This document shows, in pieces, positions 15,145-18,236 of a stretch of DNA of 64,000 bases. Each line of letters starts with the position of its first letter. Within the stretch, counting starts at the first letter, position 1. The stretch is taken from contig JADZAY010000008.1 of NCBI GenBank assembly GCA_020852375.1, positions 9,688 through 73,687 on the forward strand, given 5' to 3'. Below the pieces are notes generated by a model. The model ran no database searches. It was not told the origin of the DNA and saw only the letters and a list, made by a program, of their open reading frames with translations. The DNA comes from Candidatus Yanofskybacteria bacterium. Lineage in GTDB: Bacteria > Patescibacteriota > Minisyncoccia > 2-02-FULL-40-12 > GWA2-44-9. The position numbers were made by a program, and so were the translations under genes.

Positions 15145-15954
15145 CTACTGGACGGGGGACTTGGGGACGGGGCCCTTGTCCTGGGCCCACAGGAGCAGGT
15201 CCTCGACCGTGAAGTATCCGTAGTTGTTCGAGCTCTGCTCGACGGGGTTGAGCCAGAACCAGATCGGGTGGGCCATTTTCGGGGGATTCTCCTTCGGGAG
15301 CCAGCGGGGGGAGAGGGCGAAGTATCCCTTCCCGGCCGCCTTGAGGCGACTGGGCAACGCCGTGGCCCGGTACACCTCTTCGGTGGCGTCGCGCAGGCGG
15401 AGGCGCTCGAGATCGGCTGCCTTCATCGTATCCAGCGTCTCGCGCGGGACACGGGACCTGATGACAATGACGAGCCCGGTACCACCGAACGGAGCCGCGC
15501 TCGAGCAGAAGATCAGGGCGTCCTTTTCGAGGAGCGCCTTGTGGATCTCGCCGAGACCGATGCCGGTCGTGGTGCGGATGACGAAGTCGCTCTCGTCCCA
15601 GCATGCGACGGTCTCGTCCTCGGGGAAGAGGCGAAAGGTTCGGTCGAAAAGCTCCGCGCTTGGCGTTTGGCCCTGGAGCAGGTCGTTGATGAACCGGTAG
15701 CAGAGCAGGTAGTCCTTGCCGTTCAGGTTCTCGTAGAACCGCATGTACGAAGGGACGCGCGTGGTCGTACGGACATCGGCGCCCACCAGGTCGTGCCCGC
15801 CGGGAACATGCCGCGGGCTGCCGGGAATCCCGAACTCGTCCATGATGATGCGGATGCCGAATTCGTGTTCGGCCGCCGCATCCCATCCGAGACAGATGCC
15901 GACGACGCGCTTCTTGTTCTCGATCAAGCCGACATCGAACATGCCAGGCTTCAT
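15145..15954 (-). CDS. Hypothetical protein (269 aa)
   Basis: Normal composition. It is preceded by a near-consensus promoter and an AGGAGG RBS 6 nt before the ATG. The overlapping Arg-rich ORF 15086..15985 in another frame is judged spurious. Confidence 0.6.
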   Translation of the reverse strand: MKPGMFDVGLIENKKRVVGICLGWDAAAEHEFGIRIIMDEFGIPGSPRHVPGGHDLVGADVRTTTRVPSYMRFYENLNGKDYLLCYRFINDLLQGQTPSAELFDRTFRLFPEDETVACWDESDFVIRTTTGIGLGEIHKALLEKDALIFCSSAAPFGGTGLVIVIRSRVPRETLDTMKAADLERLRLRDATEEVYRATALPSRLKAAGKGYFALSPRWLPKENPPKMAHPIWFWLNPVEQSSNNYGYFTVEDLLLWAQDKGPVPKSPVQ

Positions 15955-15985
15955 ACCGCCTCCTGAGTGTGAAACGTGCCGACAT

Positions 15986-16013
15986 TATTATACGCTTTCA
16001 TAGTATATTGTCA
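15986..16013 (-). promoter_or_regulatory. Sigma70-like promoter (TTGACA-N16-TATAAT) for the gene at 15145..15954
   Basis: On the minus strand, TTGACAATATACTATGAAAGCGTATAAT is followed about 25 nt later by AGGAGGCGGTATG. Confidence 0.55.
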
Positions 16014-16112
16014 AGAATCCGCGGGGGTGGCACATCGCTCCGGGCTTCGATTCCTACCGCAACCACCAATGACAGAACAGGGACTGCCATTCGGCAGCCC
16101 CTGTTCTGTATG

Positions 16113-16184
16113 TGCTCTCGGTAGGAATCGAACCTACATTTCCTCCTTCGGAGGGAGATGTCCTATCCATTGAACGACGAGAGC
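16113..16184 (-). tRNA. tRNA-Arg (anticodon CCG)
   Basis: Cloverleaf read by eye. Acceptor GCTCTCG/CGAGAGC. Anticodon loop CUCCGAA. T-arm GGTTCGATTCC. CCA is not encoded. Confidence 0.75.
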
Positions 16185-16185
16185 G

Positions 16186-16270
16186 TGGTGCCCGGGGTCG
16201 GAGTCGAACCGACACGCCTTGCGGCAATCGATCTTAAGTCGATCGTGTCTGCCAATTTCACCACCCGGGC
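16186..16270 (-). tRNA. tRNA-Leu (anticodon UAA)
   Basis: 85 nt with a long variable arm. Acceptor GCCCGGG/CCCGGGC. Anticodon loop ACUUAAGA. CCA is encoded. It sits 1 nt from tRNA-Arg. Confidence 0.8.
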
Positions 16271-16303
16271 TTTCGTGATGGCGATATTCTTCAGTGCACC
16301 CCT

Positions 16304-16378
16304 TGGAGGCGGCGGCGGGAATCGAACCCGCGTGTAAGAGTTTTGCAGACTCTCGCCTTACCACTTGGCTACGCCGCC
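16304..16378 (-). tRNA. tRNA-Cys (anticodon GCA)
   Basis: Sequence GGCGGCGTAGCCAAGTGGTAAGGCGAGAGTCTGCAAAACTCTTACACGCGGGTTCGATTCCCGCCGCCGCCTCCA. Acceptor GGCGGCG/CGCCGCC. Loop CUGCAAA. Discriminator U. CCA is encoded. Confidence 0.8.
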
Positions 16379-16389
16379 AAGGGGTGCAC

Positions 16390-16635
16390 TCAATGAACGC
16401 GATGAAGGGATTTTAGGCACTCCTTCTGCTGGTGGGATCTTAGGAGTCTTTCCATTTTGACGGCTTCGCTTCGAGATGGCAACATTCGCACCTCAACGAG
16501 TTTCCACGGACGGTTCGGTTTTGTAGATCGAACGCGACCCGCATTGTGCAGCTTCAGGCGGTGATCGACATTCTCCGTAGAGCCAATATACATGTCTCCG
16601 TTCCGCTGGCTTATCAGCACATATGCGTAGAACAT
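16390..16635 (-). CDS. GIY-YIG nuclease domain protein (81 aa, stand-alone catalytic domain)
   Basis: MFYAYVLISQRNGDMYIGSTENVDHRLKLHNAGRVRSTKPNRPWKLVEV matches the GIY-YIG motifs (YVL/YIG...R...H N ... PW.L). It lies between an intact tRNA-Cys and a truncated tRNA-Cys 5' half. Confidence 0.75.
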   Translation of the reverse strand: MFYAYVLISQRNGDMYIGSTENVDHRLKLHNAGRVRSTKPNRPWKLVEVRMLPSRSEAVKMERLLRSHQQKECLKSLHRVH

Positions 16636-16674
16636 TGTGTTTTGTCTCGCTTCGCGAGATCTCGCAGAGCGAGA

Positions 16675-16708
16675 CAGACTCTCGCCTTACCACTTGGCTA
16701 CTGCGCCG
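16675..16708 (-). pseudogene. Truncated tRNA-Cys-like 5' half (acceptor through anticodon position 34), interrupted by a palindrome
   Basis: The minus-strand read GGCGCAGTAGCCAAGTGGTAAGGCGAGAGTCTG matches positions 1-34 of the tRNA-Cys at 16304..16378. Only 3 acceptor-stem nucleotides differ. A 30-32 nt imperfect palindrome (16644-16675) follows, then CAAAAC (the rest of the Cys anticodon loop), and 9 nt later the GIY-YIG ATG. Confidence 0.6.
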
Positions 16709-16709
16709 A

Positions 16710-18236
16710 CTATAACGTCTGTTGTACCGTTTCTTCGGTCACGAACTCAAGCACATCGCCCTCTTGAATATCGCCGTCGAAGCTTGATGTGTCAATCCGC
16801 AAGCCGCACTCAACGCCTTGCGCGACTTCCGAAACGTCCTCTTTTTCCTGCTGGAGATTGGTCACCTTACCGATGCGAGTGGGCGTTTCGCCACGAGCAA
16901 GATCGACGAGTGAGCCTTTCTTCACGGAGCCGGAGGTGACCTTTCCGCCAAGGATGACCGCGCGTGATTCGGTTTTAAAGATCGCAAGAACGCGGAGTTT
17001 TCCCAGCACGGTGCGCTTGGTTTCTGTGGGGAGTAGGGTGGCCAGATTGGTTCGGACGGCTTCGACGAGTTCGTAGATGATATCGAAGGATGCGATACGG
17101 ATACCGTCGCGCTCGGCAAGTTTCTGTGCCGCCGGTTCGGTGGCGACACGGAACCCGAGAATGATCGCTCCCTTCGCCGCCGCAGTTTTCACGTCGGCTT
17201 CAGTGATGTTCCCGATGCCGGAAGCGAGCACACGCAGACCGACGTGTTCGTTCGGAATGGACGCGACCGCAAGTTCGATCGCTTCCAGCGAGCTCGCGAC
17301 GTCCGCCTTGAAGATGACGTTCAGGAGGGAGCGGTCACTTCCCGGAGCTTCCTGTCCGCGGTAGGTGTCGAACGCGACCGGCGGGGGAGTGATCGAATCG
17401 GCCGCGAGGTCTTCGGCGGCTTTCTTTGCGGTTGCCGTGCGGAACTGTCCGCCGACACGGGGCGCTTCGGGCCAACCGGTGAGGAGCACCGGTTGGGAGG
17501 GGGACGCCGTTTCCAGGGCGGCTCCGCGGAAATCCTCCATGCTCTTCACCTTTCCAACGACATGGTCAACGACGATCCAGTCGCCGACGCGGAGCGTGCC
17601 ATTCTGCACGAGCGCGGTCGCGACATATCCGCGCCGCTTATCGAGATTCGACTCGATGATGACGCCTGACGCAGGGCCGGTGGTGGTACTGGTGAGTTCC
17701 TGCAGCTCTGCGACCAGGTTGACCATGTCGAGCAGTTCGGGGATGCCCGCTCCGGTCTTTGCGCTGATCTCGAGTGCGGGCGTCTGCCCGCCCCACTCTT
17801 CGACGAGCACGTCTTCCTGGGCGAGGTCTTGCTTTACTTTCGCGGGGTTCGCGCCTTCTTTGTCGGTCTTGTTGATGGCGACGATGCAGGGGATCCCCGC
17901 GTCCTTGATGATGCGGATGGCCTCGCGGGTCTGTGGCTTGACGGATTCGTCGGCGGCGACGACGAGAACGGCGACATCGGCGACCTTCGCGCCGCGGCTG
18001 CGGATCGCGGTGAATGCTTCGTGACCCGGGGTGTCGAGGAATGTGATCAGGCGTCCGTTGGTCTCGGCTTGGTAGGCGCCGATGTGCTGCGTGATGCCGC
18101 CGGATTCACCTTCAATGACATTCGTGTTGCGGATGGCGTCGAGCAGCTTGGTTTTTCCGTGGTCGACGTGACCCAACACCACCACGACGGGTGGGCGCGA
18201 AGCTGAGTGCTCGGTTGAGGATGAGAGTTCGGCCAT
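16710..18236 (-). CDS. infB: Translation initiation factor IF-2 (short form)
   Basis: G-domain motifs VVVVLGHVDHGKTKLLD, DTPGHEAF and NKTD, plus C-terminal beta-barrel domains. 508 aa, lacking the long N-terminal region of E. coli-type IF-2. Confidence 0.92.
   Translation of the reverse strand: MAELSSSTEHSASRPPVVVVLGHVDHGKTKLLDAIRNTNVIEGESGGITQHIGAYQAETNGRLITFLDTPGHEAFTAIRSRGAKVADVAVLVVAADESVKPQTREAIRIIKDAGIPCIVAINKTDKEGANPAKVKQDLAQEDVLVEEWGGQTPALEISAKTGAGIPELLDMVNLVAELQELTSTTTGPASGVIIESNLDKRRGYVATALVQNGTLRVGDWIVVDHVVGKVKSMEDFRGAALETASPSQPVLLTGWPEAPRVGGQFRTATAKKAAEDLAADSITPPPVAFDTYRGQEAPGSDRSLLNVIFKADVASSLEAIELAVASIPNEHVGLRVLASGIGNITEADVKTAAAKGAIILGFRVATEPAAQKLAERDGIRIASFDIIYELVEAVRTNLATLLPTETKRTVLGKLRVLAIFKTESRAVILGGKVTSGSVKKGSLVDLARGETPTRIGKVTNLQQEKEDVSEVAQGVECGLRIDTSSFDGDIQEGDVLEFVTEETVQQTL

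Follow-up and report, generated by a model that had tools for sequence, protein, structure and literature searches.

A candidate tRNA-Cys-replacing cassette of a small GIY-YIG nuclease gene and a 30-nt double hairpin in Candidatus Yanofskybacteria

Several described systems resemble in part the element reported here, a small GIY-YIG nuclease gene that lies, together with a double hairpin of 30 nucleotides (nt), between an orphan 5' half and a complete copy of tRNA-Cys in a 64-kb stretch of Candidatus Yanofskybacteria DNA (contig JADZAY010000008.1; the whole stretch is referred to as the window). In the Allomyces atp6 element a mitochondrial mobile endonuclease open reading frame (ORF) brings a replacement gene end and leaves the old part of the gene as a pseudogene. 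REP/REPIN sequences with their RAYT enzymes, and IS200/IS605 elements, depend on an HUH Y1 transposase, and REPs are extragenic and show neither linkage to tRNA genes nor duplication of them. Rickettsia palindromic elements (RPE) are selfish sequences of about 100–150 bp found in frame in essential protein and RNA genes of reduced genomes; to our knowledge, no nuclease is associated with them. The term double-hairpin elements (DHEs) is attested in the literature for fungal mitochondrial genomes. A study of tRNA introns in Patescibacteria makes no mention of GIY-YIG, Cys or hairpins (PMC13011429), and neither small GIY-YIG ORFs linked to tRNA genes nor these hairpins were found to be described for Patescibacteria in the literature, coverage of which is incomplete.

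With moderate confidence, we read the region as the resident copy of a tRNA-dwelling, homing-like selfish cassette that replaces tRNA-Cys. Its parts would, on balance, be a nuclease of the Slx1 clade, the 30-nt double hairpin, a complete tRNA-Cys at the 3' end of the ORF and the orphaned 5' half of the resident gene. This architecture is conserved across many Patescibacteria, and hairpin and ORF are statistically coupled. The features of the window, all on the minus strand, are as follows.

16710–18236, minus strand: infB (initiation factor IF-2, 508 amino acids (aa); ORF list), the upstream host gene, with its stop TAG at 16712–16710
16675–16707, minus strand: orphan tRNA-Cys 5' half GGCGCAGTAGCCAAGTGGTAAGGCGAGAGTCTG, standard positions 1–34, starting 2 nt past the infB stop
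16645–16674, minus strand: double-hairpin module, or palindrome, TCTCGCTCTGCGAGATCTCGCGAAGCGAGA, 30 nt, exactly between G34 and C35
16639–16644, minus strand: CAAAAC, anticodon loop and stem positions 35–40, the conserved 3' flank of the module, followed by ACA
16390–16635, minus strand: GIY-YIG nuclease gene, 81 aa, catalytic domain only (Pfam PF01541, E 8e-14), with its ATG at 16635
16304–16378, minus strand: intact tRNA-Cys(GCA), taken as the working replacement copy, acceptor GGCGGCG/CGCCGCC (ARAGORN; Rfam tRNA, 69.4 bits)
16112–16270, minus strand: tRNA-Leu(UAA) and tRNA-Arg(CCG) (ARAGORN), the conserved downstream host flank, where similarity to the related locus L221 resumes

This layout had been described by an earlier reading made from the letters of the DNA (the sequence-only reading), and the sequence, ARAGORN and Pfam bear it out. 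That reading was also correct in assigning the fragment to positions 1–34 and in placing the palindrome exactly after position 34; its three changes in the acceptor stem become two in an ungapped alignment, and the 9 nt it gave to the ATG are right when counted from the palindrome and wrong when counted from CAAAAC (3 nt). The insertion that it placed at the anticodon loop is found there for the 30-nt hairpin, at 34/35, the junction of the ORF being some 6–10 nt further on. The ORF is separated from the intact tRNA-Cys by 11 nt. Orphan and intact tRNA-Cys agree at 31 of their nucleotides 1–33 (31/33), with a 27-nt exact repeat among them. In the window the hairpin stands upstream of the ORF only, a downstream hairpin and a 3' orphan being absent. 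The product of infB is 100% identical to the Candidatus Yanofskybacteria IF-2 P0015.

The junction between orphan and hairpin carries much of the argument. Twenty-seven Cys-type loci were selected for an orphan whose alignment with the adjacent intact tRNA extended to G34, a criterion that is blind to the hairpin; in 27/27 of them a double hairpin of about 30 nt directly follows the orphan G34, and in 26/27 the module is followed by CAAAA(C), the exception being L159 with TAAAAC. Since the palindrome is present once in the 64-kb window, with 0 matches expected, and the same junction recurs in all 27 loci, the arrangement is far beyond chance. Further copies of the palindrome, which the sequence-only reading had proposed to look for, thus exist as same-junction modules in related loci and as solo copies in other Patescibacteria, the window itself holding a single one.

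Two hairpins with 6-bp stems and 3-nt loops make up the module, which is inserted without target duplication. Under a two-hairpin model of 24 loci, 100% of 288 cells are paired and compensatory changes occur at 7/12 pairs, with 35 double changes against 6.8 ± 2.2 in shuffled data (0/500 shuffles as good). A single long hairpin across the relatives was rejected, as 84.7% of its positions are paired and two of its pairs are broken in about half the sequences. For the window copy, in which both stems read TCTCGC, a single long hairpin is the minimum-energy fold. Nearly all pairs are of the Watson-Crick type, so that both DNA strands can form the hairpin structure. Two tandem hairpin modules are seen in L154 and a nested module in L159, and L067 repeats in tandem a unit in which a 3' half is followed by a spacer, a partial 5' piece and a hairpin.

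Hairpin and ORF also go together beyond the Cys-type loci. Of 76 ORFs, 34 have a GC-rich double hairpin at most 99 nt upstream; the remaining sequence of these loci gives an expectation of 0.002. The spacing between hairpin and ATG is 9–10 nt in 8/10 genome loci read by eye and mostly 8–15 nt in a wider set. ORFs at tRNA-Ser(UGA), tRNA-Glu and tRNA-Tyr, as well as those of L184 and L209 (where no adjacent tRNA was found), have hairpins whose stems are unrelated to those of the Cys type.

Linkage to tRNA genes is a property of the family. Among 101 distinct ORFs, 71 lie no more than 60 nt upstream of a tRNA gene on the same strand and 10 no more than 60 nt downstream of one; in a protein-selected subset with enough flank on both sides, 52/67 ORFs are within 60 nt of a same-strand tRNA gene, which puts a figure on the earlier remark that orphan GIY-YIG ORFs adjoin tRNAs. 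Given that the 64-kb window has 5 tRNA genes (ARAGORN), well under one tRNA-adjacent case would be expected by chance. Besides Cys, which prevails in the nearer relatives, the tRNAs concerned are Ser-GCU, Ser-UGA, Glu, Tyr, Asn, Arg, Gly, Met, Pro and Phe. The same tRNA is usually represented by an orphan fragment beyond the ORF as well; ORFs that precede the intact gene have a 5' fragment there, and those that follow it a 3' fragment. The following breakpoints each have a GC-rich hairpin (hp) at the junction.

Ser-GCU: TTTG-hp-CTAAAC, 34/35
Ser-UGA: CTTG-hp-AAAACC, 35/36
Glu: GGTTTT-hp-CATCC, 35/36
Tyr: GACTG-hp-TAAATC, 34/35
Asn: hp-TTAACC, 34/35

Homologs of the nuclease that are 57–65% identical to it share a neighbourhood of infB, rbfA, fragment with hairpin, GIY-YIG gene, tRNA-Cys and tRNA-Leu, an architecture common to L001, L003, L012, L034, L060, L065, L067, L119 and L139. 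In L001 the upstream fragment is identical (34/34) to the tRNA-Cys of that locus, which is itself quite different from that of the window. As to rbfA, it lies between infB and cassette in many Patescibacteria (e.g., L001 1507–1851, L003 2407–2742); it is absent after infB in the window (16709–16710) and in Yanofskybacteria-like relatives, where tRNA-Cys directly follows infB.

Species-representative genomes (596 Gb) were scanned with the second half of the hairpin in a pattern that included the 3' flank CAAA, which gave 120 loci. The genuine hits belong to Patescibacteria of many classes; those outside this group lack the first hairpin and resemble the ~70 chance matches estimated from the information content of the pattern. 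A protein-pattern scan of metagenomes returned more than 589 relatives of the nuclease, 80 of which were kept, and a viral collection yielded 1 relative in 2.9 million viral contigs. A phage origin was rejected on this comparison (1 viral against >589 metagenomic). The exact-sequence look-up of the window GIY-YIG protein and of its 99% relative P0001 returned no contig.

ORF and tRNA overlap in some loci: the GIY-YIG frame enters the tRNA in 20/60 Cys loci, and in those that were read it terminates at the D-loop TAG, which makes ORF and tRNA one unit. Such frames are seen in L001 (2175–2192), L003 (3238–3255) and 18 further Cys-type loci, the C-termini that were read ending for instance in ...GLVAK. 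Cleavage of a co-transcript by RNase P could remove the GIY-YIG stop codon and so act as built-in attenuation. Some loci have two GIY-YIG ORFs, either in tandem (L160 1788–2338, L125 1462–2045, L190 2501–3064) or split by tRNA genes or more distant (L161, L165, L184).

The order infB-(rbfA)-GIY-tRNA-Cys-tRNA-Leu is kept in 28 distinct loci whose IF2 is very divergent. This synteny, the conserved active site of the nuclease and the occurrence of UPF0213 proteins as ordinary chromosomal genes in Bacillus and Enterococcus would suit a domesticated, vertically inherited housekeeping nuclease (e.g., of a UPF0213-type, for repair or hairpin removal) co-transcribed with tRNA-Cys, the fragments being the outcome of local duplication and hairpin insertion, with no mobility of a cassette. 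We consider this improbable. The divergence of the nuclease appears uncoupled from that of the host IF2, the identities of the two proteins in 378 pairs from the 28 syntenic loci giving a Spearman coefficient of 0.05, a value from uncorrected identities of tblastn segments and hence indicative only; extreme pairs combine IF2 at 29% with GIY-YIG at 70%, or IF2 at 71% with GIY-YIG at 57%. Relatives of the gene are present at 10 or more tRNA isotypes, tandem copies occur, and the synteny belongs to the target tRNA-Cys itself, which keeps its place without the ORF. The closest relatives of the window, compared over the region from infB to tRNA-Leu in the loci nearest to it by IF2, also weigh against vertical inheritance.

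L226–L230, IF2 58% identical to the window: intact tRNA-Cys 1 nt past the infB stop, the uninterrupted allele
L222/L223, IF2 78%: no ORF; remnant orphan GGCGCAG(T), 23 nt past the infB stop in L222
L224, IF2 75%: no ORF; remnant orphan GGCGCAG(T) directly at the infB stop
L221 (4064–4815), IF2 88%, the closest relative found: LAGLIDADG ORF of 231 aa (Pfam 4e-7) and another tRNA-Cys allele (GGTGCCG...)

The slot is thus empty, reduced to a remnant, or occupied by a LAGLIDADG or a GIY-YIG gene among close relatives, which is the sporadic presence expected of homing genes. In L222/L223 and L224 the orphan is followed by ~100 nt that could not be assigned and then by an intact tRNA-Cys with the acceptor GGCGCAG/CTGCGCC. 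The flanks of L221 are 97–100% identical to those of the window, the end of infB being identical and the tRNA-Leu and tRNA-Arg ~97% identical from 2–3 nt upstream of tRNA-Leu; its LAGLIDADG slot has no hairpin, and its ORF stops in the D-loop (TAG) of its tRNA-Cys, as many GIY-YIG ORFs do. A possible 13-nt tRNA 5' fragment (GCGGGGTAGCTCA) is seen ahead of the LAGLIDADG ORF in L221.

The orphan of the window begins with the acceptor GGCGCAG, the same as in the intact tRNA-Cys of L222 and L224, while the intact copy of the window has GGCGGCG/CGCCGCC. Because of this relatives' acceptor and of the ancestral position of tRNA-Cys after infB, the orphan is interpreted, from sequence comparison, as the probable remnant of a displaced resident tRNA-Cys. 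The acceptor differences noticed by the sequence-only reading are therefore real, yet they fit a different resident allele and not the decay of a copy. Its broader proposal, the footprint of a tRNA-targeting mobile event in which a homing-endonuclease-like cassette brought a replacement tRNA, gains support from the slot of the relatives and from the resident-type orphan, and the uninterrupted allele that it suggested seeking in related genomes is that of L226–L230.

Upstream of infB, ARAGORN calls a tRNA-Ser with anticodon ACT in several Yanofskybacteria-like relatives (L222 1649–1736, L224 1697–1784, L226 1838–1925). A serine tRNA with A34 would be unusual in bacteria, and the call may be wrong or may stand for a variant or a pseudogene.

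The protein belongs to the GIY-YIG superfamily (PF01541, 52 bits against a cut-off of 22.6), and in 24 relatives its residues Y5, Y16, G18, R26, H30 and N31 do not vary, E62 being nearly invariant. An AlphaFold2 (AF2) model, with a predicted local distance difference test (pLDDT) score of 95, has the order beta-beta-alpha-beta-alpha-alpha. A phmmer search of the PDB matched the UPF0213 structures 1zg2 (4e-7) and 1ywl (5e-5) and SLX1 (2e-4), with no match to I-TevI or UvrC at E≤1; Foldseek with the AF2 model placed 1zg2 first (1.7e-4), followed by Slx1 (2–4e-3), I-TevI (0.33) and UvrC (0.56), the 1zg2 and Slx1 matches having a root-mean-square deviation of 2.3–2.5 Å and 38–39% identity. TIGR01453 matches residues 5–32 only (18.8 bits against a cut-off of 56), and homing-endonuclease models of NCBIfam and PHROG match only the first 30–40 residues, below their cut-offs. 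Judged by sequence and modelled fold, the nuclease is thus assigned to the UPF0213/YhbQ-Slx1 clade and is not I-TevI-like; of the profiles named by the sequence-only reading, the Slx1-like fits, and the homing-endonuclease and UvrC-like do not. All 81 aa are taken up by the catalytic domain, and the tethered DNA-binding domain of the I-TevI/Seg type is lacking. The family comprises 22,932 clusters at 50% identity (E≤1e-3), the 150 best-scoring of which are nearly all of 80–130 aa.

Many of the database relatives P0135–P0283 measure 100–135 aa, with the domain starting at residue 20–55; the start of these long proteins was probably called too far upstream, so that their frame also takes in the hairpin and the orphaned half of the tRNA. 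A small number of relatives, of 157–214 aa, have two GIY-YIG stretches.

SLX1 is a structure-specific nuclease of branched and stem-loop DNA (PMC4407285, PMC8287910). Since the window protein falls in the same subfamily, a structure-directed activity is suggested by analogy: the nuclease may read hairpins, or the extruded cloverleaf of a tRNA gene, rather than a long sequence.

The hairpin is found in other settings as well. At a distance of more than 400 nt from the nearest GIY-YIG gene there are 53 solo hairpins, 32/53 of them within stop-free stretches of at least 120 codons, and the stretches examined are real genes that carry the 30 nt as ten in-frame codons. The modules are at L129 6333–6362, L044 3499–3528, L082 3148–3177, L032 6546–6575, L074 320–349, L064 724–753 and L079 2106–2135, and the host genes encode RadA, topoisomerase I (TopA), ArgRS, an IleRS-like synthetase, DnaE, TsaD and a Mur ligase. 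In the zinc ribbon of TopA the DNA reads AAATG-hp-CAAAACTGG, in which the TG^CAAAAC of the tRNA-Cys anticodon loop recurs; with the module removed, the protein would read CPKCKTGEIV. In RadA the peptide encoded by the hairpin, SREAGSRSARQ, is present in 2/120 homologs, and the closest ones have no such peptide. Orphan tRNAs have extra hairpins in their D- and T-loops, with CAA on the 3' side of each. Palindromes in frame within genes, as known for RPEs, are hence a feature of related genomes and not of the window. Insertions into tRNA loops and into the RadA and TopA genes are precise and free of duplication; the pattern used in the search already contained the CAAA flank of the solo copies, and the extra hits of a flank scan independent of that pattern were, nearly without exception, known copies read on the opposite strand. 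As an element, the hairpin is mobile by itself: it is seated precisely and without duplication 5' of what appears to be a CAA(A) target, and the anticodon loop of tRNA-Cys, CTG^CAAAAC, offers such a site. For the pairs of hairpins that flank some cassettes, target duplication and a circular intermediate were considered as possible sources.

An element that moves on its own raises the prospect of two unrelated parasites, a free-standing tRNA-targeting GIY-YIG homing endonuclease with a replacement tRNA and an independent hairpin, similar to REP or to miniature inverted-repeat transposable elements (MITE), that is moved by another enzyme and lands at CTG^CAAAAC. The solo hairpins remote from GIY-YIG genes, many of them in unrelated genes, speak for it, as do the D- and T-loop hairpins of the orphans that also precede CAA and the hairpin-free LAGLIDADG cassette of L221 in the same slot. 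We nevertheless hold it to be rather unlikely: the ORFs at Ser(UGA), Glu and Tyr have hairpins of unrelated stems directly upstream, at 34/35 or 35/36, where the flanks are not CAAA; the distance from hairpin to ATG is fixed at 9–10 nt in 8/10 of the loci read by eye; the enrichment upstream of the ORFs (34/76 against 0.002) is large; and the nuclease is of the structure-specific Slx1 clade, without the DNA-binding domain of known homing GIY-YIG enzymes.

Three loci, L003, L065 and L067, have hairpins on both sides and outer 5' and 3' tRNA halves that enclose the whole cassette. The outer halves pair with each other and not with the inner tRNA in L003 (GGCGGCG...CGCCGCC around an inner GGCCTGG gene) and L065, and L065 includes a third-level tRNA remnant. 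Across Cys-type loci a 3' orphan is present downstream in 14/60, beginning at C35 in 11/14, and orphan and intact 5' half differ at more than 3 positions in 14/27. The sequence-only reading had offered a decayed intron-like insertion as an alternative. In fuller form, fragment, hairpin and ORF would be what is left of a group I or protein-spliced intron, or of a split tRNA-Cys, with the nuclease as homing or splicing enzyme. The enclosure in these three loci would suit it, as would the anticodon loop, where tRNA introns of bacteria are located, and group I introns are abundant in the tRNA genes of Patescibacteria (PMC13011429). This explanation is nonetheless highly improbable. An Rfam search of 15900–17000 found three tRNAs only and no group I or other RNA family, even at E≤10; no 3' exon follows the orphan 5' half in the window; the orphan halves of relatives are truncated, mismatched or full of extra hairpins; and a complete, hairpin-free tRNA-Cys is present in every case. 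Polymorphism among close relatives, together with the lack of a ribozyme and of a 3' exon, contradicts both the intron and the domesticated gene.

The intact tRNA-Cys of the window is exactly enclosed by a perfect 12-nt inverted repeat, whose arms are the following.

16379–16390, minus strand: left arm AGTGCACCCCTT, overlapping the last base of the ORF stop codon
16293–16304, minus strand: right arm AAGGGGTGCACT, beginning at A76 of the intact tRNA-Cys

The repeat could be a processing stem or a boundary of the cassette. Pairing of leader and trailer is seen in 2/71 GIY-linked tRNAs (the window tRNA-Cys and the tRNA-Ser of L188) against 0/150 other tRNAs; with 2/71 it was rejected as a general feature of the cassette.

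For the homing-like cassette the following mechanism may be proposed. The nuclease, as a trans-acting enzyme, would make breaks and mobilise hairpin modules, in the manner of RAYT transposases and REPs, acting on DNA structure such as a hairpin, a cruciform or the loops of a tRNA-gene cloverleaf. Spread between genomes would follow a nuclease-made break by break-induced or ordinary homologous recombination, with the conserved tRNA halves as putative homology arms. The host might tolerate the insertion as the cassette supplies an intact tRNA-Cys, the resident copy being split and presumably silenced by the hairpin, which may mark or protect the junction. A bolder proposal, possible and more tentative than the cassette itself, is that of an unrecognised class of bacterial mobile elements, comparable to REP/RAYT, in which the Slx1-like GIY-YIG protein, as a structure-directed enzyme, is paired with a cognate 30-nt double hairpin that enters tRNA-gene loops and, in frame, essential protein genes. 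The master copy would reside in a single-copy tRNA gene, at its anticodon loop, survive there thanks to its spare tRNA and employ the universally conserved tRNA halves as portable homology arms for moving between distantly related genomes.

A number of points weigh against the cassette and its mechanism. The link between nuclease and hairpin is correlative, and cleavage by the nuclease and transposition of the hairpin are predictions. The intact tRNA-Cys retains the presumed target CTGCAAAAC, and only the orphan site is broken by the hairpin, so that a classical homing endonuclease would cut its own host again; specificity must then lie elsewhere, or hits on the functional copy are lethal and never seen. 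A DNA-binding domain is lacking in the 81-aa protein. The majority of solo hairpins are remote from any GIY-YIG gene, and some other enzyme may mobilise the hairpin, which could merely accumulate in dead tRNA copies. The argument for a resident allele hangs on two acceptor nucleotides, the orphan being elsewhere (position 9, anticodon stem) the same as the intact copy of the window. The downstream hairpin and 3' orphan seen in about a quarter of loci are missing from the window, which implies at least one unseen deletion. Finally, the CAAA flank was included in the search pattern, and the target preference of the solo copies is therefore only partly independent evidence.

If the cassette is real, it would provide the first biological context for a large family of unexplained small GIY-YIG ORFs (22,932 clusters). 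Single-copy essential tRNA genes of minimal genomes would be battlegrounds of selfish nucleases on which cassettes of the GIY-YIG and LAGLIDADG kinds take turns in one slot, each bringing a tRNA allele of its own, and tRNA genes would as a consequence be exchangeable horizontally as hitch-hikers. The tolerance of a mobile hairpin of 10 codons in DnaE, TopA, RadA and aminoacyl-tRNA synthetases bears on annotation, phylogenetic markers and genome plasticity, and a minimal structure-reading nuclease with single-nucleotide insertion precision would be of interest as a tool.

Among known systems, T4 SegB (PMC2330249) is likewise an intergenic GIY-YIG gene beside tRNA genes, sporadic in occurrence and inherited with flanking tRNA sequence. 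The Seg proteins are ~3 times longer, possess DNA-binding domains, are phage-borne and I-TevI-like, whereas the protein described here has 81 aa, is UPF0213/Slx1-like and is encoded on a Patescibacteria chromosome; and unlike SegB it has beside it an orphaned half of a tRNA gene and a double hairpin whose stems covary. With the Allomyces atp6 element it has in common that a copy of the displaced part of the target is supplied and that mobile double hairpins (DHEs) coexist; in fungal mitochondria, however, it is an organellar protein gene that is targeted, fixed physical coupling between hairpins and ORF is not described, and nuclease clade and host are different. REP/RAYT and IS200/IS605 systems combine dispersed GC-rich hairpins, a short flanking motif, lack of target duplication and a nuclease gene flanked by hairpins, which the present elements resemble, the flanking motif being an apparent one in the solo copies, but the enzyme of the present cassette is GIY-YIG instead of HUH Y1, its modules occur in frame inside genes and it is tRNA linked. 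In contrast to RPEs, the module has 30 nt (10 codons), and at a tRNA locus it is physically linked with a nuclease gene. SLX1 and UPF0213/YhbQ (PDB 1zg2, 1ywl) represent the same GIY-YIG subfamily by sequence and predicted fold; SLX1, unlike the protein reported here, has a RING domain and needs SLX4, no function is assigned to UPF0213, and neither has been described in a mobile element. The group I introns of Patescibacteria (PMC13011429) occur in the same phylum and target the same kind of site, tRNA-gene loops including the anticodon loop, but the cassette has no ribozyme, and the gene is duplicated and replaced instead of the insertion being spliced out. Integrase-borne tRNA islands use a tyrosine or serine recombinase, and a duplicated tRNA 3' end serves as their attachment site; according to the ORF list no recombinase is encoded within the 439 nt of variable sequence in the window, and it is the 5' half that is duplicated. 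Set beside these systems, the pair of nuclease and hairpin has a real chance of being a new class of element.

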